From assembly GCA_000934665.2 (NCBI GenBank), contig KZ537995.1:124001-167593 (forward strand): a stretch of DNA of 43,593 nt, written 5' to 3'. Numbering within the stretch: the first letter of the stretch is position 1; each line of letters begins with the position of its first letter. The stretch is from Catajapyx aquilonaris (lineage: Eukaryota). Made by a program: the position numbers and the translations under genes. Positions 1,660-26,680 of the stretch are shown here, one piece after another. Under the pieces are notes generated by a model. That model made no database searches and was not told where the DNA came from. It was given only the letters and a program-made list of their open reading frames with translations.

Positions 1660-1870
1660 TCCAGTTGTTCTCTGGCAGTCTCACACTTGGTACAGTATTG
1701 TACTTCAGCCTTGGGAATGACTATTAAAAGGGGCTTATTGCATTGATAAAGAGAGTTTTATGCAAGGACTAGGTTGTAGTGATTCTTAAAAAGTGATTTA
1801 AAAAGTACTCTACTGTCACAGTGCTGAAATAGTGTGAGAATTGGAAATTATTGATTAATTTTTGATAATG

Positions 1871-2011
1871 AAGGTGGGGTTTACATGTGCGAAATCTTTT
1901 CCGAGGCTGAAATTAACAATCGATTTTTGCCTCAAACAATATTGGTTACTTGTGTTACTCACCCTCTGTGAAGATTTCGCTCGTCAAATCGCTAACATGT
2001 AAACGCACCTT
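1871..2011. mobile_element. Small MITE (~140 bp), possibly PIF/Harbinger-like
   Basis: Imperfect terminal inverted repeats AAGGTGGGGTTTACATGT ... ACATGTAAACGCACCTT. A homologous inverted partial copy lies at 6829-6897. TSD not clean, so the superfamily is tentative. Confidence 0.6.
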
Positions 2012-3856
2012 AAGGCAAAACTTAGCAAAGTATTCAAGAGTTCGTTTGGTTAAGGATGACTGCAATCAAGTGCTATGAGAACCTGTTTGCTTAACTTTCA
2101 GTTTGACAAACTTCTGCGTCAATTTGTACATTTTTAGATGCCTGACCAGTTGAGAATCACCCAACAAAATGTGTTAAAATGGCAGTTCATATTATTTTGG
2201 GGTTGGATACATTATTGGCTACCTGCCTCAAATCTTTGAAAAGTTTATTGGGCCTGCAGGAACTACATTTTAAATTAAATAAACACTAACACAGTAGCGT
2301 TATAAATTTCTCATCATGTAAAATCCAATTTGGTGAAATTCTGAATGAAATTTCAGACGTTAATTTTTATTTGCTCATGAAAACTGTGTGTATAAGCACC
2401 TGCAGCTTTGCTTTAGAAAGATTGAACAAGGGTTGATGCCAATAGTCTGGAAACTATTCACATCTGAGTGACGTAGGCAAAGAGTGTGGCTTTGACCTTT
2501 CCAAAGTGGTGTGATCCACTGTTGCTGCTCACTTAGAAAAGCAATCACAATTGAGGCGCTCAGAGGAAGAATGGCATATCCCAACCGACCTCCAATTTTG
2601 AGTTTGTAGTGCTGTTGTACCTGTGTTGTACTCTCCTTCCATGTCCCTTTCATGTGCTGAAGTACCAAATGAATTGGGACATATCAAAGCTCACATATTC
2701 CACTTGTAAAATTTGTCCGTAGCTTTAGCTGCATGGTAAAGCGAAACACAAAAAGCCACTTTTCTCAAAACGAACTGTGGTTGGGATATGCCGTTCTTCC
2801 TCTGTGCGCCTCAATGGAGAACTAGCCTTGGTCTGGGATTTGGGATTTTGGTCATAACTAGCTAGCCCATGCCTGTAAACATACATTCCATCACTCTGTT
2901 GCATCAAAATGACATTACTGGATAAATTACGGCATATTTAAAAGTGCCTTCAAAATTGGCGGGAAAAACGGGGCAGCGGAGTGGTGCCAATGGAAGTGTA
3001 CACTACAATGCCTGGTTTACTGCGAGGGATGAGGAATTTGACTTAATTAACCGCGGACACGACAACAAATTATTTTACAACCATGTGGGGGCGCGTTCAT
3101 GACATCATTTTTGTCTTCATTTCACTTCACGTGACGTCACCATTTCCCTTCGAAAAAACCCTAATTACTCCGGAACTGAAACTGATTTCTTAAAACGGAA
3201 TATGCCAAAAAAATCCAAAAAATATGGTCGAATTTATTATGTAGTTTCCAAAATGAAGGCTAGTTCCCCATTACATGATGTGAATCATTTTGCTTTGAGA
3301 TTATTGGCAGGGGATTCCCCTGTAGCAGCATGATAGCATTTTAGTTGAGCTCAAATTAATCAATTTTTATTTCTGAGCAAAAACATGCTGGACAGGTCAT
3401 TCACGTTCTCAACACATTACGTGGTTTATTGAAGGTTTTTAAATATTTCATTTTTGCGATACTAGTACTCCAAGTTAGTTACTTTTTAACATAACAGTAA
3501 TCAGCCCTGGTCATAAGGTATGAGTGCCAACTTTCTTCCCCGAGTTTTATGAGTTTCTCATCTCATTCACTTGCACATATCAATCATGAAAAAAATTTTG
3601 CTTGACAAACATAGAACAGTCAATGTTCCCTGTCAGAGGATAAACGTGCAAAAATATTTTGGGACACAATGGTGGGGAACATGGAACAGCAGAATTTTTT
3701 TGGCAGACTCAATTCGGCTATTGTTACTGTAATGATATTTTAAGCCGACAGTATATTGAAATTCAGAAAGATGACGTTGTCATTCATATTTACTATTGTG
3801 ACAAAAATAATGGGGATCTTGGACAAAGTGGAGTCAGTGCTAATTGGGCTGCTGAG

Positions 3857-6183
3857 CTAATTTATCTTACTGCATTGTAGAACTTGTTTGATCCGATGCA
3901 AACCTGAAGAAGATCAAAGTGTTCTCATAATTAACATTGTAAATAATAATTCAGGTACCATGAAACAAACAAACAACTAGACATATGGGCAGATCTTACC
4001 TTCTGCTACTTGTTCTTTGTCGTTACTGAAAATGATCCTGAACCACCCTGCTTCTGCCATCATCAGTTCAGTTGTAGGCACTACAAACACATTGTTTTGG
4101 TAGAATTTCTTGAACAGTTCTGGAGCAATTGAATAATTGTTAGAACTTCCACAGGTTTCAAGAAAGCAATTTCCATATATTCTGGCCAAAAATATCTGAA
4201 TAAGAAGTTGTATGATTCATACATACGACTAGTTTTCCAGATATTTTTGGTAAGGAGTCGGCCTACCTAATTCTCCATTTTTATCAAGGGGATGTACGTA
4301 ACGTCTGAAATCAGCCATCAGAAAAATTCCAGCCTTTCCTTGCCTGACTGGCACACCCATAGACTCGAGACCTTCTTTTGCCACAGCAAGTGATTCATTC
4401 AGCCTTTTGTGATATGTTGGCAAGTAAATATTATTGATCCATTCTGTAAGAGTGCAAACAAGCTTGTATAACTTGATAAGCATTATAACATGTACAAAGC
4501 AGCAGTCATGGCGAAACTGTTAATACCTGAGTCGTTCAGTATCTTTGCAGTCATTTCTTGCACGCATAAGGGCACAAGTTCATAGAAAGTAAGTAGCTTC
4601 AGTGCAGCAAGGACATCTGGATTTTGTGTATGTATAACTGCCACCCGAAGTGAAGCCATTCCAAAATCTTTGCTCAATCCATACAATACATGTGTCCTCA
4701 TTGGGTCAGGGACTTGCGGGAAACTCAAGATGCTGTGGAACTCTGTTGGGTCACCAAACACAGACAGAGCGTATATCTCATCGCATATGAAGTGCATATT
4801 GTGCCTGTCGGAATATTAGGAAGTTAGGAAAATGCATGTACGTCATTTTGCGAGTTTCATACCGTTTGCAAACATTCATCAGCTCCATCAATGTTTCTGG
4901 CGAGTAGAGGTCTCCCAGGGGATTGCTTGGGTTAGTCAACACAAATCCTTTCACATTTTTGCCGAGGGACAGCTGCTTTTGGATGCAGTTCTCAAGCATT
5001 TGCCCACTTGGTTGGAACGACTCCTGCAGCAGCCATTTTTTAAAGATGTACCATATGTTGAAGAGTTTAGCTCATATCTGTATTAGTGATGACGTTATGG
5101 AATTTATGCAACTCCCCTCTCTCCCTCAGGACACCAACCTACGTAACTGATATGCAAGTTTGACATTTTTACTAATATGGATGTGAGCTAAAATTCGAAA
5201 CACATGGCATTTTGATGACATCGTTACTTGTAAATAATCATTGCTTACTTTTTCCATCAGCGGAAGTGCAACCACTTCAACGCTAGCCCTTTCATTGCAG
5301 TCATTGAAAATTCGAGTGTACGCGGGTGTGGGTGTTATGAAAACGTCTCCTTCATCTGCCATTGAAAAAGCACAGGCATCCAGACATCCTGTAACTCCGT
5401 TACACACTATCAGCTGCAAAAAAAAAACAAAAAAACAGTTTATTTTAATCCCTTATTTAATGTGAATAATCACAAAATAATCATGATAATTTTATTTATT
5501 CCCCAGTAATCACAAAATAATCTTGACTTACATGGTTAGGATTAACTGGATGGCTAGCACGGAAGTTTTCAGTCAGGAAATTAGCCATTGCATTACATAG
5601 ATTCGGAGTTCCCCAGTATGAGTCGTAGAATTGCATGGATTCATCGAAGTGAAATATGTCTTTTTTGTTTAATCGTTGGACCACCAAGTCGGAACAGAGA
5701 GCGTTAACTGATGTGCCCATGTTGACCATACCCTGTAGTAAAGAATCACAAAGTAAGCGTTGAGACTAAGTTGGTTGAGACTAAAAGGATAGCAAACGAT
5801 ACGATCACACCTGCCATTAAGAAAATAAAGATGTGCATAATTATGATGTATAACATTTGAAAGAAATGTAATGAAGACAAAAGTTCTCAGCTGATGGAAT
5901 CATAATAACATGCTGAGATAATGTAGTACTTGTATGAAGAGTTGCAAGAGATTTTTTTTGTATGTCATGCATTAACATTTTGATAACTTGATGACTTCAT
6001 CTGCTTCAGTAAAAAAATATACGAGATAATTAACAATACCTTTGGGTTTGTGATCTTGTTGTAGGGATCCTTCATTGCATCCACCATATGGTAGAGCAAA
6101 AATTCTGACCTCTGGCCAACTTCGATGCATCGCCTGGAGGCAATGGAATCACTCTCGGCATCTACATTCCCATTTCTTATCAT
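3857..6183 (-). CDS. ACCS: 1-aminocyclopropane-1-carboxylate synthase-like protein (class I/II PLP aminotransferase fold), ~430 aa
   Basis: Minus-strand exons 6183-6040, 5732-5532, 5413-5249, 5023-4863, 4804-4527, 4443-4267, 4119-4000 and 3903-3857 are all GT-AG, total 1293 nt and stay in frame. Motifs: DPYNKITNPKGMVNMGTS, TNPSNPLG, CDEIY, PLP-lysine YGLSKDFGMASLRV and GWFRIIFS. Confidence 0.92.
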
Positions 6184-6828
6184 TGTTGCAGCTCACCTTT
6201 GATACTAGGCATTTCATTTGCTGTGCTCCCCTTCTTATATGGGGTCACTTCCAAGTCATTCAAGGTGAGTGAATCCGATTTCATGCAAGGAGCTTATCAC
6301 CATATGGTATTGATCCTTGCATTACAACTAATGTGTCCTGCAGGTCTGTGTCACCTCCCTTTACAGGCTTTGCGGCCTGCTCCAGGTGGTATATACATTA
6401 GTCTTAACAAATATTAAGGTGTTATGATTGCATGGCCATGTGGTTGCAAAGCATGTGCCCACATATTTGGTGATGCAACTGACAAGCAAGCTGCTATACA
6501 TATCCTCACCAGATCAAGAATAGCCTGACTTTATATTACGCATGCAGATTATTGATTCGGATTATCCTTCACTCATGGTATGCTATGTCTGTGAGGAGCC
6601 TGGCCAATTCCTGTTGGATATTTTGTACCAGATTTCTAGATTCTGACGTTCTTCATCTGACGTGTGTGATATGATTGTGATATTGCTTGTCTAGTTCTGC
6701 ATTTTTCCAGATTGAAATCTTATTAGTATTTACTCTCTTTGTACAACACCATAATATTCTAGATCGATGGAACGAAAGGTTTATTTCAAAACTGACATGC
6801 TTATTATTCTGTATCCATAATTTTGCTT

Positions 6829-6897
6829 TAAGCCGCGTTTACATGTGAGCGATTTGACAAGCGAAGTCTTCACCGAGCGAAGTAACCAATATTGTTG
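6829..6897. mobile_element. Partial inverted copy of the 1871-2011 MITE
   Basis: GCGTTTACATGTGAGCGATTTGACAAGCGAAGTCTTCAC...AAGTAACCAATATTGTT aligns to the reverse complement of ~1935-2010 with a short deletion. Confidence 0.65.
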
Positions 6898-6924
6898 CTG
6901 ATAACAGGCCTCATTTTAGGCATT

Positions 6925-6968
<44 letters not shown>
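6925..6968. repeat. (ATG)14 microsatellite
   Basis: Perfect ATG run, directly visible. Confidence 0.95.
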
Positions 6969-6969
<1 letters not shown>

Positions 6970-7004
6970 AATATTATTATATTTATGATTGACATAGTCC
7001 GAAT

Positions 7005-7290
7005 TGTGGGCGTGTCCGATTTTTTGGCGGGAAAAGTGGAGTCGCTGATTGGCTGTAACACTGAGCGTTCTTTTTATCCATAAATTTTTATGGCAATTTT
7101 ATTATTAAAAATCACTCCCTCATTTGTGCTTCCGATCAATCCAATCGATTACAGATTAACTTGCTTCCGGTCATGTTTTTATTGATTTGATTCGCCCCGC
7201 CCATTTGCGTTGGTACAGCCAATCAGGGGGAGGCATTCCAAATCGAACGTTCTGGAGAAAGAGCTCCATTTCCGGTCCGCCATTTTCGAT
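7005..7290. promoter_or_regulatory. Putative CpG-rich promoter, probably bidirectional, between the ACCS-like gene (-) and the coiled-coil gene (+)
   Basis: E2F site TTTTGGCGGGAAAA 7022-7035; CCAAT boxes at 7048 (ATTGG), 7141 and 7219; GC box CCCCGCCC 7195-7202; ETS-like TTCCGG; YY1-like CCGCCATTTT 7277-7286. A strong donor CAG|GTAAGG at 7387/7388 could splice to the acceptor at 9731, just before the coiled-coil ATG. Confidence 0.65.
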
Positions 7291-8025
7291 GAGTTGGTTA
7301 GGTTCGGTCAGGTTCTGTCTTTGTATCTCCCCAAATCTGGTGCCCTCCTCGTCCATCCTCGTCCGTCGCAGGCTGCAGGGGAGGCAGGTAAGGAAGCTAG
7401 GGAAGCTGATGTGGACAGGCATCTTCAGGGTTTGAAACTCTGGCCCACGGGGGGGATTATTGTTGGGAAAGGAAACTGTTCGAATCGGGGGAATATGGAT
7501 CGAAGCTGATTGATGCAGAAAAATTGATGATGTTTGAGGCAAATGAATGTTAGTTGTTGATATGAAAAAGATGTCATAATCGAAGTGACAAATGTACAGT
7601 ACCAGTCGTGTCGAATTATCTGGGAATTTGGCCCACTTTATAAGTACGGGTACCACAGGTCATTGACCCGACTCGTCCGAATAGGTAAATGCTCGAATGG
7701 AACGCCATCAGCGAACTCATTATTGTGTACAGCACATAACATGTTTTGCATTTATGACATCCTACGTACTTTGCCATATGGTAATGTCCTGCAGTAGAAT
7801 CTTTGGATTGCTTATTATTTAAGTTGGACCATAACATTAGCAGCTCATATTTCCACAACTGGTAATAATAAAGGTAATAATCAGAAAATTAACCACTTAA
7901 TAATAAGCTGATTAGTTCCAAAAACCGCTAACAGCACTATGGACACTTAGAACACTCCACTTAGAAGTCGCAGGTGTTCCAATATTGAAATATGGAGTGT
8001 TCAGCAGTTTATTTTTGGCTTAATT

Positions 8026-8270
8026 GAAGACCTCGGGAGAAGAACGATCAAGATCCACTTTTTGTCAAAAATGAGTTACATATCTCAGAAGATACTTTCA
8101 CTAGCGTAGAATAATTATGACGGTTCGGTTGTCGTTGTGGAGTAATGTGATCATAGGTCACTATGTGGAAGGCCCCGAAAGTGGTTTACAATGGAACCTT
8201 ACGGGCCTTCGATTGGAATGTCTCAGTTTCACCTGAGGTGGTCCTTGATCGTTCTTCCCCCGAGGTCTTC
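8026..8270. mobile_element. MITE with ~33-bp terminal inverted repeats
   Basis: Left GAAGACCTCGGGAGAAGAACGATCAAGATCCAC; right GTGGTCCTTGATCGTTCTTCCCCCGAGGTCTTC followed by TTAA. TSD ambiguous. Confidence 0.7.
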
Positions 8271-8889
8271 TTAAATTATAAATAGGCCTACTTATTTTTA
8301 CTTAGTGACTTTTAGTGGTTAAGAATATTAGCAGTTAATGTAACTGCTAGAAGTAAACCTCCCAAAGTAATTATAAGTGGCTTAGTTCCAAAATGACATA
8401 ACCACTATATGGACATTCAATCAGAATTCAGTGTATGCAGGGTGTTCCAATTGAAATGTGTAGCAGTAGTTTTGCGTAATTATGAAGTTATTTTTTGGAT
8501 AGTCACTTTCAGAGATTATGAGTTGTCTGGTAATTTGGCCCAGTTTAAATACTGGTACTGTAGCTATAAGGTCATTGACCCAAGTTTCATCCAAAGTATC
8601 TCGAATATATTGAATAACTTACCTGTGGTGCATGCATGCAGCACATAACTTTTTCTTTTAAACTTTCCATAACATTATTGATGAAAATTTGTTACTCTAG
8701 AATAAGTTTGGCTGAACATCACTCTTGATAATAACCATTCCTGTAAGTCAGAATAACAATGGCAAACACAAAGGACATGTCAGTTGGAGCTAGAAACAAT
8801 TACTGCTGCATCTAATGTATGTGAGTGAATTCCCCTGCCAACTCTGTAATTGCACAGTGCAACTAGTGTAGTCTAGATAAGTAATAGCG

Positions 8890-9145
8890 GGAAGGTACAA
8901 TGACCGAGATGGTAACGTCTCTGCTTGCTGAGTGAAAGGTCCCAGGTTTGATCCCCGCATGGGAGCTCCCTTTTGCCTGCATCAGGAGGGTCTCTCACCT
9001 GCGCCTTGGAGGTGTCTGGCAACCTAACCTCCTGGGTAACAGCACATGAGCCATTTAACAGCATTGCACTTGCACCCACGTTCCCTCCCCAAAAATCCCT
9101 ATCCTTACCCAATGTTCTTGATTCCTTGCACCGGAGTTTGAAGTG
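8890..9145 (+). mobile_element. Degenerate tRNA-derived SINE
   Basis: A-box-like TGACCGAGATGG 8901-8912 and B-box-like GGTTTGATCC 8945-8954 at pol III spacing, followed by a non-tRNA body. Ends are uncertain. Confidence 0.55.
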
Positions 9146-9742
9146 AAAACAGAAAAATTATATAAGAAAAATGGTGGCGTCCCACCCCCCTAAGAGAGCC
9201 ACTGGCTCTATCATGGGGTAAATATATTTAAAAATAAAAATAAATATAAGGAATAGCAGCATATTTAGAATTCTTCAGAGCGTACATTAATTTTGTTGCA
9301 AGCATGGTAATCTTTCTGGTCAAAAAGCATCTGTAAAGAAATAACATTTTTTGACAAACGTCATTGCAATGAGGAAAAAGTCACTTCTCTCTGGAGATGA
9401 TGCCTGCAAAATGTAAGAAAATAATGGATGCTCTAAAAATGTCAGATCTGTACTCTACCAGAGATGACTGAATCATTGAACGGAAGCAAGAGGTGGCTCT
9501 AAGTGCGAAAAGGACATATTCTTTGATGGAAGTCAACATTTTCAATCAATTTAGGTTGCATTAAAAAAATTTCATCTTGAACTGATCTGTATGCCATTCA
9601 AACTCATTTTTTTTCTTTTGAGAATATTAATAAAAACCCTATTTGCATTAGAAAAATTTCTTTTGTTGCTTCTCATCCCCTCACTTTTAACTGTCATGTC
9701 CACATTATTCTAATTCTGTCTTAATATGTAGCTTGTGCAATC

Positions 9743-10531
9743 ATGAGCTACAATCCTGAGTTCAAACTGCCACAGCGGCCAGGAGATTATGCCCGCAGGA
9801 GCAGCAGGACATTCCCGTCTCGTAACCCACAGAGCAGCAGTTCTGCAGGTACGGAAGGCATGGTTACTTGGTACCATTTCCTAGTGGCTATAACATCACA
9901 GAGTATCAATTGTTACCTTTTGTTCTTGAAGGTCCCAGTGGGCATCGATTTTCCGATCCATATCAATCTGCCTTTGGAAGCAGAGACCAAAGTCATCAAC
10001 ATTCCTCTGCAGGTGAGCCAGAATTTTGGTGTCAATAAAGTGTATGATAAATGTCCCAGATAGATCATATGGTATTGTTCCTACCAGTAGTGCAGTGATG
10101 TGAGTGAAAAAAATGCATTATGTTACCGAAGCAGTAGTGGTGTAGTGGATATGGTGTCCGACTGCTAATCGGGAGGTCCTGGGTTCGAGTCCCGGAGGCC
10201 GGCGGTCCTGACCTTGGTTTTATGTGGTTTTCCAAGGTCACTCCAGGGAAATCCCGGGATCGTACAGTTATATAGGCCACAGCCGCTTCCTTCCTTTCCC
10301 TGGAGGAGGCGCGGTGTCGGTGGGGGGCTTCCGGCTGCGCCTAGTGGGGTGTCTAAGCTTGGCCCCCTGAGGGACTACACACGGCCCCCACCACAGGACA
10401 ATGCACTGCACCTTTGTTCCTCCCTCCCTATCCCTTCCCTGTCCCTGCACCGGTGAGATTGAAAAAGTTAGAAAAATGGAGGAGATCTCCTCCCCCTGCA
10501 TTGACCAATTGGTCTCAAGGGGGATCCCAAA

Positions 10532-10562
<31 letters not shown>

Positions 10563-13500
10563 AAATGCATTATGTTAATAGGTGACAATCAGGTGTCCTA
10601 AGAACTCTCAGGCACAGTCCTTTTAGCACACAATATAATAGGTGAGCAAAAAGAAACACCTTAGTGGCATTGTTATTTATTCTTTTAATAATGGATAATT
10701 TGTTGGTCAGCATTGTGAGTATGTTGTTACACATGCTGTAGTATAAAGACACTACATGAAGAAATATATTATGATATATTTATTAATCCATTCATGTAGA
10801 CACAGCTTCATCAACTTGAGATAATGTCCATCTCCACTACCCCGTCCCATTTCCACTTTTTTGGCTTCTCAGAATGTTGGGGAGGTGGCTGTGAAAAGCG
10901 GCATAAAGACCTATCAAAAGTGTGCTAATTCAGCCCTAGTTATAATGCAGATCTCGGTTTATATTCGATGATACTGAAAAACGGTAATGGTTTGTCATGT
11001 TTCGACTATCCTTTAGCTAGCAACACCAGGAACCACTACACCTACAGGCCACCAGAAGTGCCCAACGATGAGTGGGACAGCTCAGCCCCTGTGGTACCAT
11101 ACGATGCTAAGAAAAGCCATGGAAAGATGAACCAGTATGTAAATGGTGTATACAAGTCACTGACAGCCCTGGAGGACACCTGTAAGCAGTGGGACGAAGA
11201 GATACAGGAATTGGGGGAAAAGAAGAAGGTGCTGTTGAAGCAAGTGGAAGATGCGCAGACAAAGTGTACCAACCAAAGCATTTGGATCCAAGAAGAGGCG
11301 AGGCATAGAAACACGTGCAAGGCAACGTATGTCATTAATTTTTTTCTCAATTGAATGCATTGAGGTGATTAGTTAATTACGATTACATCCTTTGAAGAAG
11401 TCTAGCTATTATAACTAGGGGTGTCCAATCTGTCATTTGGCCCTTTATAATAGCTAGACTTCTTCAAGGGATGGACGTTGCATGCGCATAGTCTAGTAAC
11501 ATAAAGTGACTACCCAGTATGGACTGCTGCTCCAGTTTACTTCACTGACCAGCTAACATAATTACGTCAACATTAGTCTTTTGCCTTTGTTGAAGCAAGG
11601 ATGTCCACAATTTCACAGAAATATTTTTTCAGGATGAAGGAGATTAACTGCGTCACAGGAGAGATCAGCACAGGTGTTCACAGAAATCAGAGGTCTTGTC
11701 ATGAGGTGAATGCCATCATCACTGAAAGTAAGAAGAAAGACTTTCAGGGCATGGGAAAGGATGTGTCTGCAGTGACTAAAATCGCGAGACAAACAAACTG
11801 GGAGAGGATGAGGAAAGGTTTTGAGAGGAAGATGGATCAGATTGAGACACATCTGCAATCTGAGTTTGAAAAGCGAAACGAGCAACACTCGGCTAGTGTT
11901 ATTGAGCTGGAAAAGATTATTGGTGATAATGCCAGTGTCTCTGAGAAAGAAGGCCTTATTAAGAAACTGGAAAATGCTGTGAAGGCAAAGGATGATGAAC
12001 TGATGGACGTCAAGGCTCGGTTGGAAAAGGTAGGCTTCTCCTCAATGACGACAATCATGTTCATTTGTTTGATATATATATATACAGGGTGTTCCAAGTT
12101 CATGGGTAATTTTATTTAAGTTATAATAACTAACATCACCCAAAGTAGTTATTTTTGTGTAGCTTGTTGTGCCCTGATCCAGGTACCTTAGTACTATCAG
12201 GTGGTTGGATGTAGCCAGGATGTAGCAGTGGCTATATGATGATGATGATGATGATGGATACCCTGTGATAAACCTCCTTGAGCTTTTTAGGGGATCATCT
12301 TTTAATTGACTGACTTTAATCATTGCCTTTGCTGTGATGGATTTTGATAGTGGGAGGAAGTGGGAGAACCCTGAGAAAACCCACGCGAACACGGAGAGAA
12401 CCCATTGAAACTCTGTCCACATAAGCATCCTCTGTCTTGATTTAGGGATCGCAATCAGGACCTTAGAGGTGGAAGGCTGTGGTGCTAACCACTACACCGC
12501 CTGCGGCTGTGGCTATAGAATGAGGCACCTGGATCGGGGCGCAACAAGCTGCAAATAAATAACAGCTTTGAGTGAAATTTCCTATAACTACAAGGCCCCA
12601 AGAACTTGGAACACCCTGTAGTTATAACTACACACTAATATTTATATATAATTATGAAAGTATTTCTTCAACTTTCAATGATATAATCTCAATTTAATAA
12701 GGTCCAAGGTAATAGTTTCCAGTGGTAGCCATCATGATAGAGGAAAATAATGAGGTAGCTGGATCAGGATGCGTAAATGTGCCCTTGTAAATCTTCATAC
12801 ATAATTATAAGTGTACAAACTGCAGTAGAATCCCAATTATCTGACCTTGGATTATCTGACTGTCCTGCTCCAGCAGTAAATAAATGTTTTCTCCTCAAAT
12901 ACTATAATGTACTATGCATTTGTTTTGTATTACCTTAGTTACATTCTGATTGTATATTTTGCGCCGATTATAAATTCTGAGTAATTGGCATTTTTATGGT
13001 AAAAAAGGACTTCATTTGTATCACTGATCAACAAAATTGAAATATTTCCGGCACATGTGTACATAATAAAAAGTGAAAATGGCTTACTTAACAAAACCAT
13101 TGTTGACCATATATTAGTCACATTGAGCAATGTGCAGTGTACTTTCCGCAGAATAACGTATTCTGTTACGCGGCTGTTACAAAAAAATGGAGCGTGATGG
13201 AAACTTTCTGACCTCATATTTGGAATCAGCGCATATGAATGAATTATAAACACCTAAAATTGTCCATGTGCCAAAAACCTTGTTGACTAGTGTTATTTAA
13301 TGCATTTATATATTTTTTGTTGTGTTTCATTAAAGTTTTCTTTTCTCCTGGGATTATGCAACCTTTTTTGTGTTTTAACCATGCGCCAGTCCCATGGGTG
13401 ACGGATAATAATCGGGGGTCTACTGTATGTGAAAACATGCAGTGGTGAACAGCATAATTATGTTGTCAACATGCAATAAAATGACTCTACCTTATGTTTA

Positions 13501-16500
13501 TTTCAGATCATAACAGAAGCTGTAGATGCTGAGACCAAGATAAAGCAGGACATTGCTGTGTTGTCATCAGATTTTAATCAACTTCAGGGCAAACTGCTGA
13601 ATGAAGAGGAAAAGTATGTTTATAGCTGTTGCTTTGTGAATTCCTAACAAATACAGTATCATTTAAATTCTAGGATGAAATGTTTTGAGCTGTGGTTGCG
13701 TCAGCTGGAGACTTACGATAAAGATTATTCAGCCCTCATAAACAACCTGAATTCTGAGAAAGAGAAAGAAGCAAAACGTGTTGAGATAACTCGAGCAGCC
13801 ATAGAACTGATGACAAAGGTGATTAATCTAATTAAGATAATTGGCAAGCTGTAATGTGAATTAAATCATTTCAGGAGCTGGAACTGCTGAAACTCAAGGA
13901 AGAATCAATGGTTTCTGACAATACACAGCTGAAAAACTGTATTGCTGAGATGAGTTCAGTAGAGAAGGAGCTGTGTGAGTTACAACAGAGCATGGGTTGG
14001 CTCAAGATTGGGGAAGGAAATTTCCAGGAGAAGGTCAAGTGGATGGCAGGAATGTACAGCGATAATGAAACTGCAAAAGCTGAGGAATGTGACCTGGAAG
14101 AGAAAGTTGCAAAGTCAGAGTCTGAACTTCAGGCAATCACAGAATATGCGTCTGGGCTAAAATTGCGATTGGATGATGTTCTTCAAGACAGCTCTCACAT
14201 AATGGAAGCAGCAGGTATAGTCACACCATTATTACTTATTAGTTTGTATCTAGGTCTTTATGAACAAGGCATATTTTTCAGTCTCCTTTTACCTGATTGT
14301 GAGTAATTCTGAAATGTTTCTTTTGACAAAAATGGTATGAGGCAATGGCATTTAGAAGCTAATGCGACAAAGTCATATGCATTGCATTCAGCTGATCTCT
14401 GAATGTAACACCAATCATGTTCAGGTAATTCACATTAGAAGCACTGTATTGTGTCTAATTATCTGTGTCCTTACACTGGTTTGTGAGAAGTGACATGCTG
14501 CAAAAAGTCACAATAATTAGTGAAACTTTTCACCTAATAATGATTGATTAATTATCTTGACAAATTCACACTCCCTGATAAAGGATTCTCAACTTGTACA
14601 TCTTTTTCCCAACCACTGTTTAGAAGTTGTTTTTTTTACAAGTTAATAACAAAGAAAGAGTAACTTCTCTATCTAGTTTGGAAAAATAACAGGCTTCTGA
14701 TTTGACCTTGAAATTGTAGCAGAGATTATTATTATTTTTGTTGTTGTGAAACATACAGTTTCAGATTGGGACTAACAAGCATTATTCATGCCAAAGAGAT
14801 ATGCAGTATTGAACTGTTTCAAGTCAGTTGCCAGTGTAAAGACTAATTTATTCATGTATGGTACTGTACCATATTGTACTCTCCACACTTTGGTTTCCAT
14901 TTTTTTGCCTCATGTGTAATTTTAAACTCGTTAGAGAGGGATTACTAACAACATCACTGGGCTGCTTTGTACGGTCTGGTGATTATAAGATTGCACACAT
15001 ATGTCTGCCCATTTTCATGGCATAACTGGGGAAGTCTATGGGTACCGTCTCTAGGGGTACCGTATTCAATAACTATCATGTTCCTCAGAACCACTAATTC
15101 ACTGTATTGCATCTTATGCATTTCACCTGATGTCATCTTTATTTTATGAAAGAGAGCAAGTCTTGATGGAATATTTATTATTCCTGAGCTTTAATTTTTC
15201 AGGATTATAAAGATACTGTTTTGTCATTGGAATATTTTCTTACATATGTGTTGTTTGAAAATAATGCAAGCATTACATGAATAGTGATTCATATATGTGT
15301 ACTGTATCTACTCTTGAGCAATAAGCAGAAATTAAATATGGTTTTCATATTTTCTAATTGTGTAGTGAAGAAGAATATGGAGCTGAAAGAGGAAGAGTCT
15401 ACGTTGAAAACCCTCTATGATAGTGTGAAGTGTGTCGCTGATGAGCTTATGAAAGAAGAAAAAATCAAGCAGGAAAGGGCTGAGTCACTGGAGGCAGAGG
15501 TGGTCATGTTGAAAGAGGCTGTTGACAAGGAAAAGGGAAATTATGAAAAACGTGACCAGCTCCTGAAGTGCAAAGAGGCCGAACTGACTCAGGCTCAAAT
15601 GTCTCTCGAGAAAGTACAGACTGTCTTGGAAGAAGACAGGTCAAGAAATACCATGTTGCAGTCTGCGGTGACGGAGACAGAGAAGGTTCTGCGCAAGGAA
15701 AGAGAGAAGACCAGAGTCACAAAAGATGATCATGCGAAGGTTCTGACTGCAATTGAAACTGGAAAGACCATGGAGGGTGCTATGGCCAAGCTGGAAGAAG
15801 CAAAGTTGAATTTGCAGGCAAAGGAGCATGAGGAGGCAGATATTAAAGCCCTACTACAGAAGGCCCATGAGAACATTAAGGCAATGCAGGAAGGGGTGAA
15901 AGCAGCTGGCAAAGATATGAAGAAAGCTGTGGCCAAATTGGAAAAGGAAACAAAGATTAACAGGGAGAGGATGATGGATGCTATGAAGCATAAGGAGCAG
16001 TTGGAGGAAAAAGAGAAGAAATACAGGACAATGAGAGAGTTATTAGAAGCTGATGCTTCAAGGGCTGAAGAGGAATACAGACTGCTGCAGGAAGACTTGT
16101 GTAAATTTGAAGAGAAGGGGAAGAATGTGGATTTCGGAGCTGGAAGAGAAGTGGAGGATATGAGGAAGGACTTGGCTGCAGCCACAAGCTCTCTACAAGC
16201 ATACAAGGCCACAGTGGAGGAGCTCCGAGCAGTTCTGAAAGCCAAGAAGCAAACACTAAGCATGAGCATGACCTCAGCAAGGCAAGAATGGACTAAGCTC
16301 ATGGGAGAGTCAGAGAAGCATATTGAAGACTTCAAGAGAGAACGGGAAGCTGAGTTGGCAAAAATTAACGTGGCACTTGAGGAGAACAAGGCGCTAGTTT
16401 CCAGGTTTGCCGATGATGAAGAGGTAATGCAGAAGTGAATGGAGAGAGATTAAAATTTTTTGTGGCTAAAATAACATTTGCCCTTGATCCCACAGTTTAA

Positions 16501-19500
16501 GTATTGTGCAGTCATAAGGAAACATTTACATGACAATCATGAGTGAACTGGTCATTAGGCAAGGCAGTGCAATGACAAAATGGTATGGAGGGCTACTCAG
16601 TTGCAGGACCAGATTTCTGCATCCAACTTGTCATATGACCTAGCTCCTATCGACTCTGTTTAATTCCATAAAACAAAACTGATGCACTCCTCCTCCAATG
16701 GCGTGATCATTGTAAATGCTCCCTTGTGGATATCATTAATACTATTTAATATCAGATTAATATACAGGCGTAGGATACAGTGTGACCAAAAAATAATGCC
16801 TCGATTTAAAAGCCTTATAACTCGATAACTTGTAAACATATCGTAATGAAGTAAGTTTTGAAATGCTAAGAAATGTTTGAAGTTTTGGTCTTACTTTAGT
16901 TTCTTTGGATATGAGCTCCACATGCAACTTTTGGAAAAATAATTACGCTAAACAGTTGATAATAATAACTATTGTTAGTCTTTTTACTGTTTCAATATTC
17001 CATGTTGCAGTAGTTGTGAGTGACTCAAGAACTAATGTGCACATTTTATGGCACAAAATTCATATGACAAAGATAACTGCAGTAACTTAAGTTTGTCTCT
17101 CATGTGGCTTGATGCAGAGATAAGAAATGAAATTTTATGTTTTATTGGAGCATCCCAAGTGTGGGCGATACTAATGTGGTTCCCATCTGCGTGTGGATTA
17201 AATGTGTAAAAAAAATCTTATACTCTTTTTCTGTATTACGTGCAGATGTACAAGCATCAAATATCTCGGAAAGAAGAGGAGTATCAGATTGCCATTAGCA
17301 ACATTGTTAAGAAGTTGGAAGCAGACAAAGAAGCAGCCACTAAGTTGAAGAAGGAGATGGGTTCACATGCACGGTCTGTCAAGAAGATTCAGAAGGAGCT
17401 AGCGAAGACCCAAGACGTTTTCAAGAACAGAGAAGTTGACCTGGTGAGTCATGGTGAAGTTGCACCCATTGCCTACTTATGGCACCAAATACTTTCCACA
17501 AAACCTGCCCAGAGAGTGAAAACCAAGTTCCATGGGGAGAAGTAAAATTTAATCCCAAAAACCAGAAAATGCTCAAGGTGATCCAGTGAAATCGAGGAGC
17601 AATATGGTTACTCCACAGCATACATACAAATAACAAAGGATTTTAATATTAAAGTATAGATGGTTTTGAGTTAGTCTGGCAATGATACAACCTGGCCTTT
17701 GTGATTTGCTGTGCTTATATTCACAGGAGGGGGAGTTGGAGAGCCATGAGAAGATTATTGCTGATATGAAGCAATTGCTTATGACGAAGGAGGGAAAAAT
17801 TGAAGAGCTCATCACTTCCATGGGCGATGTCAAGATGCTTGCGGAGGAGCAAAAGGTAGCCAAGGAGGCTGACTTCGCCACAAAAATGTCTCATGCATCC
17901 CCTAAGATGACCATGTTTAGAAGCAAGATTTTAGCCAGCCCTGCCAGGGCTCCTACATCAAAAGCGGTGGCTTCTCCTGCAATGACTCAGAAGCCGTCCT
18001 ATTTCCTACCTTCAATGACTGGTTCATCCACCACTGCTGGTGCCAGTTCACAGAAGGGATTTGTCCCACTCAACATCATCCAGGTCATTCCAAAGACGAA
18101 GAAGGACAGGGGCACTACTGCACCTGTGAAGGCAGCCAGACTCCTGGTAAATGTACCTTAATTTGGAGACAAACATGCAAGTTTTTGGATTTAAATTTTC
18201 CAGTCCCCACCAATTTTGACAGTGTGTGAGCTACTTGAAGATGTCATCGGTGAATCTGACCAAAATTATTTGCTATATATGTCCGCAGACATATGAGGTA
18301 ATGTTTAGCGCACAACTATACTGTTTCTGGAAAGTGCCCAACATCGTCCTCCTTGCAAAATGAGAACATCAAAATATACGTAACTTTCAATTAAAAGGGG
18401 TAGTCAGCAAAAAAAAAAAAAAAAAAAAAAATCTCTTTCTACACTACATTTCATTTCATTTCATTTCATATCATTGGAGGCAGTAAATAATGTTGAAATA
18501 ATGATAAAAAGATTAACATCAGAGGTCTTTCACGTTAATTGTTGGTATCGGAAGCAACAGAAATGTAACACAAGGACACATAAATATGTCTTAGGAGCAT
18601 GCTCCTCTCAGTACCCACAATTAATACTGTAATTACCCCTCAATGATGGTGCATTATTTTAGAGAAGGCTGCAAGGGGAAATCCCTAGAAAAACCATACA
18701 AGTCCAATGAAAATGATTGATCGCTGTCCTGGGTATAAACTGTGTATTTCAGAAGTGGAAGGCTGCAACCTAACCACTGCACCGTTGAACTACCCTGCTC
18801 TTATCCCAGGAGTAGTTTCTTGAATATTAATTTAGCGGCACTTCTGCAGGGACCAACTTGATCAGCATATTCCTCAATGATATTCTGATCACTGATCACT
18901 CGTAGCAAAAAATTTTACAAAGTGAGATGGGTCAAGTTGTTAAAAATAATGTCAAGTGTCTCATAAGGGAAGCTGATACGTTATAATATGAAGGGCATAG
19001 AGTGATATGCTGAATCAGTTCAAATATTTTTCTGTGGGGATGGTGGAAACTCGAGAAAAATGTTTTTATTTCCATATGTCTCTCAGGGAAATAAATTTAT
19101 TCATTAAACGGCAAAATATAATTGTTATGCACCCGTACCAAGAGGTCATGGATGAGTTTTTCCTCCTCCTGCTAAGTCTCGACTAGCAGCTTGCTTCATT
19201 ACCTTAGTAGTCATGTCACTATGGGCAACATTGAACTAACGATTCGAGACCTATGACATCCTACTACTCTCTGGCTTCATGAACAGACAGTCCAGATTCT
19301 CCCATAACTTCATTCATGAATTTGTATGAGTACTAGATGGTAATCAAGTACTAGTGGTAGTAGGACAAATCAACCCTGTGACTTTTGTGGCCTCCTTCAG
19401 AAGGTAGGTCAATTAGCATGTAATTTTGCCCAGTCCCTTCTCATCTCAACGACACCTTTAAGTATGCCAAGTTAAGTCAAAAGTAGCAGAGATTGAGTCC

Positions 19501-20532
19501 GTCTCGGTGATCTACCTGATATGAAGTTACCTTATGACTGCGCATAATATTATTTATACCTGAACAAAATGCAACGTTCATAAAAGTATTTGACAAATAG
19601 GATGGTGCATTGTGGTCGCCACTGCTGTTGAGCCACAAAAAAAAAGTCAAAATGACAAATGGGAACTCTTATTGTTAGTGGTATACTAGATAAGATGAAT
19701 TTGCCTCCTTGGGGGTACCTATAACTAGTCAGAGGTAATTTTCTCTGCGCTGTAATTAACTAATTTATGCAGTGTAATAATTAAATGGAACTGCCTTTAT
19801 TACATTGCCATTACCATTATGTATATGCAGGACTCATCTGAGATCAAGACAGAAGTCACCTATGATTCTGATCCTGATGATAACCCACCCACAACAACAC
19901 CAGTGTTCGGTGATGGAAATAAGAAGCATATTATACCTGAAGGTGCACCTTCCAAACCAAAGAAGGCAAGGAAGCAGGACCTCTCAGGACTGCAGTCATT
20001 TGCCTCCCTCTATCCTCATGGAAACATCCAAAAGGTGAGTCCATGATCATACCCTTATGACAAACTAATGTGGGTTGTCAGATGCATGGTTCATTGCTGT
20101 GCCTGTATTCCAGTCCTAGGACCCATATTTAATTTTGCTTGAATATTTGCTTCACTTTGTTAATTTTGTTCTAGTTGAAGTTGTTGTCTACTAAAAATAT
20201 CTATGATTCCTTTCAACTTCTAGTAAATCAGAACACGTATATTTAGGAACCTGAATAAAAATATCTCCAGAAGTTATGTAGTTTACAGTCAGAGATGGGT
20301 GAACACCCTTCTCTCTTCAGCAAGCTTTATTATCCTGGCTATAATCTTCAGGTTGTCTTTTCCACAGCCCGTCATTCCACTGCAGACAACTAGGCGACTT
20401 CCCACTTTTAAAGATGCCCAGCTGTTCATGAAGTCATTGAAGAAGGAGTGTTCCAATGAGAAGAAGAAGAGCTCACGTGAAGTAAACAAAAATGGCCAAC
20501 CCATAGAGTGCATAACCCTTGACTCTGATTGA
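9743..20532 (+). CDS. Long coiled-coil protein (~1176 aa), SYCP1/synaptonemal-complex transverse-filament-like
   Basis: Twelve GT-AG exons with consistent phases: 9743-9848, 9932-10012, 11017-11326, 11633-12029, 13507-13613, 13674-13818, 13875-14214, 15366-16423, 17246-17443, 17727-18146, 19831-20034, 20368-20532 (3531 nt, open to TGA). The product has a disordered N-terminus, a long E/K/L-rich heptad region and a basic S/T-P-rich tail. The gene model is solid; the SYCP1 identity is an inference. Confidence 0.85.
10126..10560 (+). mobile_element. Full-length tRNA-derived SINE with (AAAT)n tail and 17-bp TSD
   Basis: A box TGGTGTAGTGG, B box GGTTCGAGTCC, anticodon-like arm TCCGA-CTGCTAA-TCGGG and (AAAT)n tail ~10529-10560. 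Direct repeat AAAAATGCATTATGTTA at 10109-10125 and 10561-10577. Confidence 0.92.
11386..11473. repeat. Intronic inverted repeat (29-bp arms, 1 mismatch, 30-nt loop)
   Basis: CATCCTTTGAAGAAGTCTAGCTATTATAA (11386-11414) pairs with TTATAATAGCTAGACTTCTTCAAGGGATG (11445-11473). Confidence 0.85.
12085..12618. mobile_element. Tc1/mariner-type MITE interrupted by a SINE
   Basis: TA|CAGGGTGTTCCAAGTTC ... GAACTTGGAACACCCTG|TA, with imperfect inverted homology extending ~100 bp inward (AGCTTGTTGTGCCCTGATCCAGGT vs ACCTGGATCGGGGCGCAACAAGCT). Confidence 0.85.
12237..12508 (-). mobile_element. V-domain tRNA SINE with (CAT)n tail
   Basis: On the minus strand: A box GGCGGTGTAGTGG, degenerate B box, V-domain-like core GTTCTCTCCGTGTTCGCGTGGGTTTTCTCAGGG..TTCCTCCCAC and (CAT)n tail. 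TSD GTGGCTATA at 12228-12236 and 12509-12517. Confidence 0.85.
12823..13425. mobile_element. pogo/Tigger-like non-autonomous DNA transposon
   Basis: Termini CAGTAGAATCCCAATTATCTG ... CGGATAATAATCGGGGGTCTACTG|TA. The left flank is TG (probably a mutated TA). AT-rich non-coding interior. Confidence 0.65.
18447..18790 (-). mobile_element. Degenerate SINE related to the 12237-12508 element
   Basis: GTGGAAGGCTG..CTAACCACTGCACCG at ~18755-18784 matches the head of the 12.5-kb SINE. An (ATTTC)n simple-repeat tail lies at ~18447-18472. Confidence 0.5.
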
Positions 20533-20754
20533 AGGAGGACTCAGTGTTGTTTCAATGATGGGCATCAAAAAGAGATGTTTTTTTTTTCTTCGTTCCCTGA
20601 GGCAGAGTAAAAGTCGCAGTTTGTTGAGTTATTGTGCATTGCAATAAGCTCCACTAATGCTGTTCTTACATTAATACATGTTGATTAATGTTAATGCATT
20701 GGATTTGGTGACCTTTTGTGGTGGATTAATTTTTACAAATATGTTGCACTAGTG

Positions 20755-21540
20755 CAGTGGTTCCCAACCTTTTTCGGGTCGAGACCCCCTTTTATGATAG
20801 TCACATAACCTGCGACCCAACCTAATAGTAGTAGAAGATTAATGTAGTGGAGACATATTAAAACATTAAAAAACTTTCATGGTAAAATTTCCTATACAGG
20901 GTGTTTATTGTAACTCTGCAAAGACTTTCAGGGGTAATAGAGGGGATCAAGACAGGTATTTTTGACATAGGAACCCGTGTCCGGAAACGCCATCTAGAGG
21001 GGGTTCATAGACAGGGAACGGGTGCGCTCAGACGCTTCATGCGGGAGGCGCTAGGTGAGGGGACTGTTTTGTTGATAGCGATAGCGCTCGGATAGTAAAC
21101 ACCAATGTGATGTGCCATAACCTGGCAACAGCAGAGCCATCTAGCAACTAAAGTACACCTCCTAGGAGATGCGCGGATAGTCAACAGCGGTTCTGCTGCT
21201 GCCAGGTTATGGCGTATCGTGTTGTTGTTTACTTCCAACGACGCGATACGCCATTACCTGGCAACAACTGTGCGCCATCTACGAACAAAACAGTCCGCTC
21301 TCCTAGCGCCTCTCGCCTGACGCGTCTGAGCGCACCCGTTCCTTGTCTATGAACCCCCTCTAGATGACGTTTCCGGACACGGGTTCCTATGTCAAAAATA
21401 CTTGTCTTGGTCCCCTCTATTACCCCTGAAAGTCTTTGCAGAGTTACAATAAACACCCTGTATATAGCAAGTAAAAAATTCTGTCGCCACCGTGCGACCC
21501 CCCGGAAAAATCTTCTCGACCCACAGGTTGGGAACCACTG
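20755..21540. mobile_element. hAT (Charlie-like) MITE, ~220 bp after removing the nested insert
   Basis: Perfect 16-bp TIR CAGTGGTTCCCAACCT / AGGTTGGGAACCACTG and 8-bp TSD CACTAGTG (20747-20754, 21541-21548). An empty site exists in a paralogous segment at ~26511. Confidence 0.93.
20897..21460. mobile_element. Tc1/mariner-type MITE with long (~170-180 bp) TIRs, nested in the hAT MITE
   Basis: TA|CAGGGTGTTTATTGTAACTCTGCAAAGAC... and ...GTCTTTGCAGAGTTACAATAAACACCCTG|TA. The arms are near-identical over the first ~140 bp. Confidence 0.93.
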
Positions 21541-22631
21541 CACTAGTGGGTTCATAAGCCAGTAATTTTTGTAGTAATTTTTAATGAACTTGCGCAAATG
21601 GTTTTGATGTGTACGTATTGTGTAACCATTGTTGATTTGTTGCACGTTGCAGTCACTAACAGTTCAGTGCACATAACGTATGACTTTTTGTGTTTTTGTG
21701 CTAATTTTCATCATACTTGGGCAAATGGTCCTGGTGTAATAATGTCTGGCTGGTATTTTTGTTTCTCACATAGCTCAATATGAAAAACGTTGTCTATAGC
21801 TGCCCACTGCGAAATGCTGTAGTTCAGTGTATTAATTTTTGTCTGTTATTTGTTGTATTTGCCATGAATTTGGGATTGTGGTAGCCTATTACTGTTGCAC
21901 TTTGCAGAAAATGTGTTTGAAATACCCAGTAATCTTATATTAATTTCTTTGAAAATAAATGTGTTCCCAGCATTCATGAATACAGGTGGAAATTGAAAGT
22001 GAAATGCAGTGAAGCATGTTACTAGTGATGTTGCTATGTTCTACGACACTTTTATGTATGGACAATTTTTTCTCCCCAGTTTCAATCCCACCACAGCCTT
22101 TATCATTTGCGTTTACGTTTGCATCTATCATTTATGTTGGATTACACATTGTTCAATGGGTAATTTTGGGCAGTAATTGTACTTCCAACTGCAATCATAT
22201 TCTATGGCCCTTCCCATAATGAAGTTATGCAACATGTGATTATGGAGTATTGAAATAATCCAAGTAACCTTGCAGGAATGGTCAAGGTGGCCTCATGGTG
22301 GTGAAATATTTAGAATTGTTTGTGGAAAGAAGAGGGAGGGAAACAGAGAGAAAGATGAAGGAGGCTCATTACGCTGCTGATACGAAAAAAAAGGGAGGCT
22401 TCTCTGTGTAGTTTAATGGAGTAATAATAGAAGGAGCACGAAGTGTGGATGTCTGCATTTTTCATTATTTGCAGCTGGAGGAGGAGGAGGAGCAACTTGA
22501 ATGAGTTATGTTGGCAGCAGGGGGAGACCAGCAACGTTTGAATGATAAACTTGAGGCTGGGGTGTTTGCTTCTGATCAGTCGGTCACTAGCCAGCCAACC
22601 CAGCAGCAGCAGGTTTCCCTTTGTCTTCACC

Positions 22632-25600: not shown

Positions 25601-25712
25601 TGCAATTCATGTTTCAGGTGATGCGATGTCCATTGACGTGCAGCAGATAATTGATAACCACAGAGATGATATCATTGAAGGCATTTCATTGCCTGATAAT
25701 AATCACCTGTGA
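22632..25712 (+). CDS. PAFAH2: Platelet-activating factor acetylhydrolase (PLA2G7/PAFAH2 family), ~398 aa (428 aa from upstream ATG 22542)
   Basis: Exons 22632-22692, 22764-22861, 23123-23237, 24479-24644, 24710-24836, 24897-25105, 25167-25340, 25404-25555 and 25618-25712 total 1197 nt in frame. Motifs: LPLPTGKYPVGCVD, RLYYP, FSHGL, ELASRGFVVAAVEHRDG, nucleophile GHSFGG, LDCWM (Asp) and GTEH.NQTDF (His). Probably co-orthologous to vertebrate PLA2G7 and PAFAH2. Confidence 0.93.
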
Positions 25713-25952
25713 TAAATATTGCATCAGAATCAGTGAGAATAGGTTTTTAGAATAGGTTTAGTATGGTTAGAATGGGTCTTATTGGTAATGGCTGCATTTT
25801 AATAATTTTCAATTATTATTGAAAAAAAAATCCCCTTTCATGCCAGGCATGTTGGGATCCACGTTAACCATTGCAGGATCTGCACAATCGTTAATTCGTT
25901 CACCCTGATGAAGCTTGCACTTGTCTGTTCATGTGCAGCACAGAATTTATTC

Positions 25953-26421: not shown

Positions 26422-26461
26422 TGCAAGAAGGAAATTATTATACATAATACATGTTATGGAT

Positions 26462-26680
26462 AGTGGTGACCTGATTTTGGTGGATTAATTTGTAGTATAC
26501 AAATCTGTTGCACTAGCGGGTTCATAAGTCAGTAATTTTAAAATAAACATGATGGGGGTTTTGATGTGTATTGTGTAACTATTGGTTGCACGTTTCAATC
26601 ATTACTGTTCAGTGCACATAATGTACATATTTTTGTGGTTTAGTTCTAATTCTCATCATACTTGGGCAAATGGTACTTGT
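26462..26680 (+). repeat. Diverged duplicate of 20705-20754 + 21549-21735, lacking the hAT insertion
   Basis: GGTGGATTAATTT..TACAAATCTGTTGCACTAGCGGGTTCATAAGTCAGTAATTTT..TCATCATACTTGGGCAAATGGT aligns across both flanks of the MITE. Confidence 0.88.

Follow-up and report, generated by a model that had tools for sequence, protein, structure and literature searches.

The closest described systems for the gene examined here are the transverse filaments of the synaptonemal complex (SC) and, beside them, mitotic coiled-coil scaffolds. The gene occupies positions 9743-20532 of a 43,593-nucleotide window (the whole stretch of DNA analysed) of contig KZ537995.1 from Catajapyx aquilonaris. Human SYCP1 has 976 residues, with a helical core at residues 101-783 (PMC7614228). 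It assembles head to head through residues 101-111, the best-conserved region of the protein, in which L109 is essential in mice whereas V105 is dispensable (PMC10588951). Its conserved motif CM1 spans 83 residues where the coiled coil begins (PMC5803294). The C-terminus of Zip1 engages the axis through SUMO-interacting motifs (PMC12706140, PMC3542071). SC proteins evolve fast while keeping insertions and deletions (indels) out of the coil (PMC8598163), and c(3)G combines fast evolution with repeated duplication, its paralogs having repeatedly taken on new testis roles (PMC11761671).

A 2018 survey reported no credible ecdysozoan SYCP1 (PMC5803294), and a diverged SYCP1 was verified in the silkworm in 2023, so that at least one arthropod retains the protein (PMC10151401). 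A narrow check of titles and abstracts returned no SYCP1 reported from crustaceans, myriapods or chelicerates, and the available sections of PMC13693662 and PMC8131943 hold nothing on arthropod SYCP1. The timing and frequency of SYCP1 replacement in moulting animals would be better constrained by such a filament, were one verified in a deeply diverged invertebrate.

The locus described here is a real, intact and duplicated orphan coiled-coil gene, which a sequence-only reading had proposed as a highly diverged SYCP1-like transverse filament. The gene pair is well supported, and we consider it a reasonable transverse-filament candidate, not a discovery. Of the roles considered, that of a meiotic transverse filament is the most probable, at roughly 0.38; membership of the SYCP1 family by descent is less likely and must be called doubtful.

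Gene structure and protein architecture

The coding sequence comprises 12 exons with GT-AG boundaries at 11 of 11 introns, and encodes 1,176 amino acids with no internal stop (Table 1). A paralog, open over 1,190 amino acids, preserves every one of the 12 exon boundaries and has the same splice sites, and the reading frame proposed from the sequence stands on these grounds. A candidate for a thirteenth exon (10582-10641) was rejected, as it contains an in-frame stop and is without counterpart in the paralog.

The predicted protein consists of a head of ~95 residues, a rod of ~870 and a tail of ~210. The head (residues 1-95) is rich in proline and serine, with 12 prolines, and residues 91-972 contain none. 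Hydrophobic residues over positions 95-965 recur with a peak period of 3.49, and heptad order is strongest at residues 106-140, 281-420, 456-525 and 876-945. Two pieces were modelled with AlphaFold2 from two-sequence alignments: residues 93-165 as a single helix (mean pLDDT 91) and residues 167-298 as three helices (mean pLDDT 70), the first 24 residues of the latter being of low confidence. The tail (residues 961-1176) is basic, with an isoelectric point of 9.8 and 21 prolines. No folded domain is evident at the head or end from sequence composition and heptad analysis. The disordered head, long coil and basic tail described in the sequence-only reading are all borne out, as is the transverse-filament-like architecture that they make up. 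An unbroken rod would measure a computed 129 nm, compared with 101 nm for human SYCP1; this value is an upper bound, and the predicted rod is probably shorter owing to glycine-rich breaks.

Possible transcript evidence comes from one public run (X1), its kind and tissue unrecorded, which carries part of the stretch, no RNA run being listed with it; gene parts that it does not cover are uninformative, and eight listed pieces of 235 were examined. Contigs in exon 3 (11026-11274) and exon 8 show zero differences from the window copy, and another contig in exon 8 differs from it at 20 positions, where the paralog has 21. One contig with a depth of 2.9 has five paralog-specific letters within exon 10 and runs from 18102 directly to 19830, the base just ahead of exon 11; the intron flank at this junction is alike at 18 of 23 positions between the copies. 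We read this single contig as a spliced transcript of the paralog. The orphan gene is probably expressed.

Table 1. Positions of the gene, its putative promoter and associated features in the window
Feature	Position	Strand	Remarks
Inverted segmental duplication, one arm	~1218..21738	.	Other arm: same contig (C57) from ~7,100 to 1, minus strand, continuing on C1558
Putative promoter and non-coding first exon	6976..7513	+	CpG island; copy upstream of the paralog
GC boxes	7008, 7196		Motif pattern in element 6976-7513
E2F-type site	7022-7035		Motif pattern in element 6976-7513
CCAAT boxes	7047, 7217		Motif pattern in element 6976-7513
ETS-type sites	7164, 7269		Motif pattern in element 6976-7513
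YY1-type site	7277		Motif pattern in element 6976-7513
GT donor	after 7387		Start of inferred intron 7388-9731; AG acceptor 9730-9731
Coding exon 1	9732..9848	+	ATG 9743, inferred acceptor AG 9730-9731; residues 1-35, disordered head
Coding exon 2	9932..10012	+	Residues 36-62, disordered head
Coding exon 3	11017..11326	+	Residues 63-165, end of head and start of rod
Rod tip	11136..11180	+	Residues 103-117, fastest-changing rod stretch between paralogs
Motif 1 site	11148..11192	+	Residues 107-121
Coding exon 4	11633..12029	+	Residues 166-298; contains motif 3 site
Motif 3 site	11796..11825	+	Residues 221-230, exon 4
Coding exon 5	13507..13613	+	Rod
Coding exon 6	13674..13818	+	Rod
Coding exon 7	13875..14214	+	Rod
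Coding exon 8	15366..16423	+	Residues 496-848, rod
Coding exon 9	17246..17443	+	Rod
Coding exon 10	17727..18146	+	Rod end at ~residue 965 and basic Ser/Pro-rich tail; SP sites at residues 972, 985, 997
Coding exon 11	19831..20034	+	Tail; KKARK basic cluster, residues 1098-1102
Coding exon 12	20368..20532	+	Tail and stop; conserved last 17 residues at 20479-20529

A full-length paralog in an inverted duplication

The paralog is divided between two contigs. Its exons 4-12 lie on C1558, and exons 1-3 lie ~135 kb off on the minus strand, where the contig of the window begins; a 353-base contig (C18315) bridges the two parts at 99.6-100%. The C1558 copy of exon 8 is 94% alike. Genome searches with exons 3, 4, 8 and 9 returned only the two copies and two small paralog-matching contigs. 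In the other arm of the duplication, only short pieces match the upstream neighbours, and the sequence downstream bears no relation to that of the window. An interpretation of the second copy as an allelic haplotig was rejected, since the downstream DNA differs and the copy lies inverted on the contig of the window.

Over 1,175 aligned codons the two copies are 83% identical, with a synonymous divergence (dS) of 0.164, a non-synonymous divergence (dN) of 0.085 and a dN/dS of 0.52 (bootstrap 0.41-0.67). Judged by these ratios, selection on the pair is purifying but loose. The middle of the rod (residues 501-700, 15366-16000) is far more alike than its N-terminal part (94.5% identity and dS 0.087, against 75.6% and 0.248), which suggests gene conversion between the paralogs in this region. 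Alignment of the copies yields 16 indel columns, 0 of 16 within the rod. Fast change around an indel-free rod is hence present, in a comparison of two paralogs and as a trait that is not specific to SC proteins.

A non-functional pair, arising from a mis-assembled haplotype or a decaying duplicate, is largely refuted and barely credible. Such an origin would suit the fragmented assembly, with its 20,583 contigs, and the high dN/dS. However, part of each copy sits on a single contig, where the two run in opposite directions and are followed by different neighbours. The 12 exons of each form an open frame and the dN/dS interval lies below 1, while neighbouring genes are present in the copy as fragments only, and the X1 contig with paralog letters skips the intron precisely.

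Comparison with described transverse filaments

The protein resembles SYCP1 in its overall plan, with a head of ~100 residues, a long helical rod and a basic disordered tail of ~200 residues. In both paralogs, moreover, the rod tip bears a leucine, in the proposed register opposite L109, followed by K-x-W. The SYCP1 of Bombyx mori offers a comparison by description, as another diverged invertebrate coiled coil; it resembles mammalian SYCP1 only in a CM1-like stretch (PMC10151401). It differs in its length of 550 residues as cloned, its match to the SYCP-1 superfamily and its detection by antibody on pachytene SCs. Zip1 (875 residues) and C(3)G (744 residues), likewise compared by description, are both shorter but share the head-rod-tail layout, to which Zip1 adds a SUMO-interacting C-terminus and c(3)G its fast evolution and duplication.

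The duplicates of c(3)G are truncated, whereas both paralogs described here are full length (PMC11761671). This bears on a germline nuclear protein of another kind, acting in the central element, in telomere attachment or at the axis, or on a pair split between a filament and a paralog with a new germline role. The promoter, fast evolution and tail would suit such a protein as well as they suit a transverse filament, and c(3)G paralogs have repeatedly gained testis roles (PMC11761671). The retention of full length and of both ends in both paralogs argues against it, and we consider it highly improbable.

The sequence-only reading had also compared three peptides of the early rod with mammalian SYCP1 segments, and these peptides were located at 11148-11192, 11277-11297 and 11796-11825. 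The motifs scored are those mammalian segments as given in that reading, picked after looking. Motif 1 is identical at 5 of 15 positions and motif 3 at 5 of 10 (4/15 and 4/10 in the paralog), with scores of 25 at residue 107 and 22 at residue 221. Placed anywhere in the rod, the two motifs jointly score as high in 5 of 400 residue shuffles and in 13 of 400 heptad-block shuffles. With motif 1 confined to the first 30 rod residues, such a score arises in 74 of 20,000 heptad-block nulls and in 4 of 20,000 residue nulls; the same test on the paralog gives 848 and 173 of 20,000, respectively. The proposed echo of SYCP1 holds, modestly above chance and more weakly in the paralog, for motifs 1 and 3, and fails for motif 2. 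As the motifs were picked after looking, this resemblance is treated as a modest lead.

The rod tip changes quickly between the copies: codons 103-117 show 13.5 non-synonymous and 1.5 synonymous differences (permutation P 0.001 gene-wide; 0.0125 within exons 3-4). A tail window at residue 1140 has as many changes as the tip. Relative to the local synonymous rate, the excess at the tip is weak and does not establish positive selection, with P 0.02 in the best window, 0.07 at residues 103-113 and 0.38 at residues 107-121, values that are uncorrected for scanning. The paralog retains Y108, S110, L111, E115, C118, K119 and W121, and V107 is altered. In the register of the sequence-only reading, which is unproven, V107 and L111 stand opposite human SYCP1 V105 and L109; the retention of L111 and the change of V107 would then fit an essential L109 and a dispensable V105. 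The coil that follows the tip is constrained, with proportions of non-synonymous and synonymous differences (pN, pS) of 0.05 and 0.28 at residues 118-165. Divergence of the tip may reflect weak constraint where the coil begins or, alternatively, change in an interface surface after duplication.

Conserved features are also present in the tail. The several SP/TP sites noted from the sequence are indeed there, four in number, but this is no more than chance, since shuffled tails average 4.2 and 6,375 of 10,000 reach four. A full cyclin-dependent kinase (CDK)-type site at residue 985 and the KKARK cluster (residues 1098-1102), a possible nuclear localisation signal, are kept in both paralogs. The last 17 residues are identical at 15 of 17 positions, against 21 of 37 in the remainder of exon 12 (Fisher p 0.03), with pN 0.05 and pS 0.375. 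The protein ends in CITLDSD, whose hydrophobic core and acidic flank resemble a SUMO-interacting motif (consensus from PMC3174244). A strict pattern for this motif has no match at the C-terminal end, and a pattern allowing cysteine matches there. SUMO-interacting motifs are present in many other nuclear proteins. The promoter described below, the basic cluster, the SUMO-motif-like end, the fast evolution and the duplication together fit a protein that may be nuclear and linked to proliferation or to the germline.

As a transverse filament, the protein would form a predicted parallel coiled-coil dimer over residues ~95-965, between the disordered head and the basic disordered tail. By analogy with SYCP1 and Zip1, DNA binding and the SUMO-interacting end would anchor the tails to chromosome axes. 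The N-terminal tips would join head to head at the midline as in SYCP1, with L111 in place of L109. Under its CpG-island promoter with E2F and CCAAT sites, the gene would be strongly expressed in dividing or germ cells only.

A putative promoter shared by both copies

The element at 6976-7513 has two genome copies, which are 95% identical, above the identity of most exons. Its CpG observed/expected ratio is 0.9, compared with 0.32 in the coding sequence. When 431 windows of 538 bp were scored with consensus patterns, the five motif classes listed in Table 1 occurred together in just three, which overlap one another at this element. The paralog has retained the element although only fragments of the divergent neighbour are left, from which we infer a putative promoter and non-coding first exon of the rod gene, its start and intron being predicted from sequence.

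A TCCCGC E2F-type motif is present in the promoters of both copies. This motif is frequent in mouse germline gene promoters (PMC12435664), and promoters with E2F and CCAAT sites belong equally to cell-cycle and mitotic genes (PMC3287175 and others). The promoter therefore cannot separate meiosis from mitosis. The sole CHR-type TTTGAA hexamer of the element sits after the inferred donor, and the window holds 41 such hexamers.

These features bear on a fast-evolving cell-division scaffold of all proliferating cells, that is, a coiled coil of the kinetochore, spindle pole, chromosome periphery or nuclear envelope. Such a scaffold would use its rod as a spacer, its basic tail for CDK-controlled binding of microtubules or chromatin, and its end for SUMO binding. 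Mitotic scaffolds such as CENP-F, NuMA/Mud, astrin and HMMR likewise have a long rod, a basic tail with CDK-type sites and an E2F/CCAAT-type promoter. The E2F site, two CCAAT boxes, GC boxes and YY1 site in a CpG island kept in both copies, the conserved CDK-type site, a depletion of CpG in the gene body that matches a housekeeping neighbour, the presence of both paralogs among the contigs of X1, whose kind is unrecorded, and a rod that exceeds the listed transverse filaments all favour such a scaffold. Set against this, no family-defining domain reaches the Pfam cut-off on any exon, no folded domain is evident at the N-terminal head or at the end, the number of SP/TP sites equals chance, the lone CHR-type hexamer lies after the donor among the many in the window, and motifs 1 and 3 exceed chance at the start of the rod. 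A scaffold of this type is nearly as probable an identity as a transverse filament, though one to be held tentatively.

Searches for relatives

SYCP1 homology, as claimed from the sequence, is not established; no profile or sequence search returned SYCP1, and no fold search returned it above unrelated helices. The Pfam scans were made piecewise by exon, which together with the HMMER filters reduces power, and the first of them covered 20 proteins, eight of them neighbours. No Pfam family reached the cut-off on any exon, and matches below the cut-off are to generic coiled coil, e.g. Rootletin, ADIP and Fez1. The last exon had 0 matches among PDB sequences. In a fold search with the helix of residues 93-165, the alphaN-end structure of human SYCP1 (6F5X) stood 34th of the 50 rows shown (Z 6.9, root-mean-square deviation 2.5, 73 aligned), tied with unrelated helices, dozens of which lie level at Z 6.8-7.3. 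Foldseek gave 0 and 1 rows at E <= 10, a result that plain helices make uninformative.

The large protein searches covered exons 3, 4 and 8 (3 of 12). A HMMER search with the exon 3 alignment against 1,835,955,588 proteins gave three matches at E <= 0.001, all rejected as tandem-repeat artefacts (9-12 summed weak stretches). Word-index searches, which are weak evidence, yielded none of 8,000 candidates at E <= 0.001 for exon 8 and none of 592 at E <= 0.1 for exon 4. The best ESM Atlas scores, 0.82 and 0.79, are under the lead threshold. In a metagenome scan, one of 121 pattern matches passed and was rejected as an off-frame stretch on a bacterial-looking contig. Genome profile searches for SCP-1, Cor1 and TEX12 gave 0 candidates each, which is no evidence of absence, the SCP-1 search having recovered no control. 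No Rfam match reached the gathering score in the window. A piece of the neighbouring eIF2B-epsilon gene has best matches of 32-40% identity (6 of 836 candidates), those in a tick, a chiton and a ribbon worm being about level at 35-39%, with no preference for an arthropod; since even a housekeeping neighbour finds nothing closer, close kin are missing from the database, which partly explains why the rod gene has no relatives there.

The same searches bear on a non-nuclear, lineage-specific rod, such as a protein of the centrosome or ciliary rootlet, the sperm tail, a Golgi tether or a myosin- or paramyosin-like filament, in which the SYCP1 echo and the end motif would be chance. Three large searches without a true relative, the generic sub-cut-off matches (Rootletin, ADIP and Fez1 among them) and the ties in the fold search are what such a rod would produce. 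Golgins and tail-anchored tethers carry a C-terminal GRIP-type domain or a transmembrane anchor, myosin and paramyosin rods a 28-residue charge repeat, and lamins a rod of ~350 residues, an Ig-like tail domain and a CaaX end. Here, exons 10-12 match no GRIP-type or other Pfam domain, and no transmembrane segment is present (maximum 19-residue hydropathy 0.68). A myosin-type charge repeat of 24-33 residues is absent from three rod segments, where 200 of 200 shuffles reach the observed power, and there is no Pfam myosin-tail match. Lamin features are also lacking in a protein with a rod of ~870 residues, a tail without a Pfam domain and an end that reads LDSD, not CaaX. These absences make a lamin, a myosin or paramyosin rod, or a golgin of the tail-anchored or GRIP kind less likely, whereas mitotic scaffolds and centrosomal or ciliary rods stay compatible with them. 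The conserved basic cluster and SUMO-motif-like end, moreover, point to the nucleus, and a non-nuclear rod is regarded as unlikely.

Weighing a transverse-filament role

A number of observations speak against a transverse filament, and against SYCP1 ancestry in particular. In the Pfam scans, SCP-1 (PF05483) matched 0 of 12 exon pieces at E <= 1 and 0 of 7 further pieces at E <= 10. Searches of the PDB sequences (177,635), a bank that includes 6F5X, listed 7, 13, 2 and 14 sequences at E <= 10, none of them SYCP1. The Bombyx protein, by comparison, gave a SYCP-1 superfamily match, and the protein of the window gave none (PMC10151401). Among the three motifs, motif 1 scores 26 at a second place, residue 324; the site of motif 2 lies outside its four best-scoring places in both paralogs; and the choice of motifs after looking itself counts on this side. 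No other part of the rod is less conserved than its tip, whereas the tip is the most conserved part of SYCP1: residues 103-116 differ at 9 of 14 positions, the densest change along the rod (permutation P 0.02 when the whole rod is considered and 0.11 for residues 91-300), and loose constraint at the coil start may explain this.

Further points on the same side concern size, rod continuity, expression and the tail. The protein exceeds in length the five transverse filaments listed in PMC10151401 (550-993 residues), and its rod is ~27% longer than that of SYCP1 (~870 vs 683 residues). The heptad signal is weak at residues 141-280 (z -0.1 to 1.9 in four 35-residue windows), unlike in SYCP1, and residues 167-190 are modelled with pLDDT < 50; the rod may therefore break where SYCP1 is continuous. 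Indel-free rods and basic tails are common among coiled-coil proteins. An E2F/CCAAT promoter is as typical of mitotic genes, and gene-body CpG (0.32) is close to that of the housekeeping neighbour eIF2B-epsilon (0.31), which fits broad or germline expression. At the C-terminal end, CITLDSD has cysteine at the first consensus place, where V, I or L is expected, and the cysteine-allowing pattern, which ends the tail in 2 of 20,000 shuffles, was written after seeing the end.

A more specific form of the transverse-filament reading is that a diverged SYCP1 was duplicated and that the paralogs diverged under selection at the tip surface while keeping the buried leucine, so that each would zip only with itself, e.g. 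per sex or stage. We regard this as improbable. If true, SYCP1 would persist in a group reported to be without it, and the two copies would provide a natural pair for tests of zipper specificity. If the protein is instead a mitotic or cytoskeletal rod, the locus would be ordinary.

Flanking genes and repeats

Several neighbouring sequences were noted along the duplication. Within the window, 1218-1770 (the last exon region of eIF2B-epsilon) is 81% alike to a piece in the other arm (C57 ~3,600-7,100). Short stretches of a minus-strand gene at ~4000-6200, presumably an ACC-synthase-like aminotransferase as judged by eye, also persist there. Beside the duplicated arm, C57 11,800-16,000 carries open reading frames of 361-406 residues that look by eye like the integrase and envelope of a long terminal repeat retrotransposon. 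The paralog is followed on C1558 (15,000-30,000) by tandem pepsin/cathepsin-D-like aspartic protease genes, with DTG motifs recognised by eye.

Downstream of the rod gene, positions 22700-27520 contain a gene for PAF-acetylhydrolase II (Pfam E 1.7e-10), a minus-strand leucine-rich-repeat-like gene with a weak match and a C19orf12-like gene (E 1.2e-9); another C19orf12-like stretch lies upstream of the window (L018:5881-6001). Two intronic repeats of the rod gene, at 10130-10520 and 12260-12500, have bin depths of 2,985 and 202 in the public run. The former appears by eye to be a short interspersed element derived from a tRNA, and is missing from the alignment blocks of the paralog. Copies of another short repeat occur at 20873-21097 and 21343-21470, with copies 97-99% identical at the end of C1558, and this repeat is probably a young mobile element.

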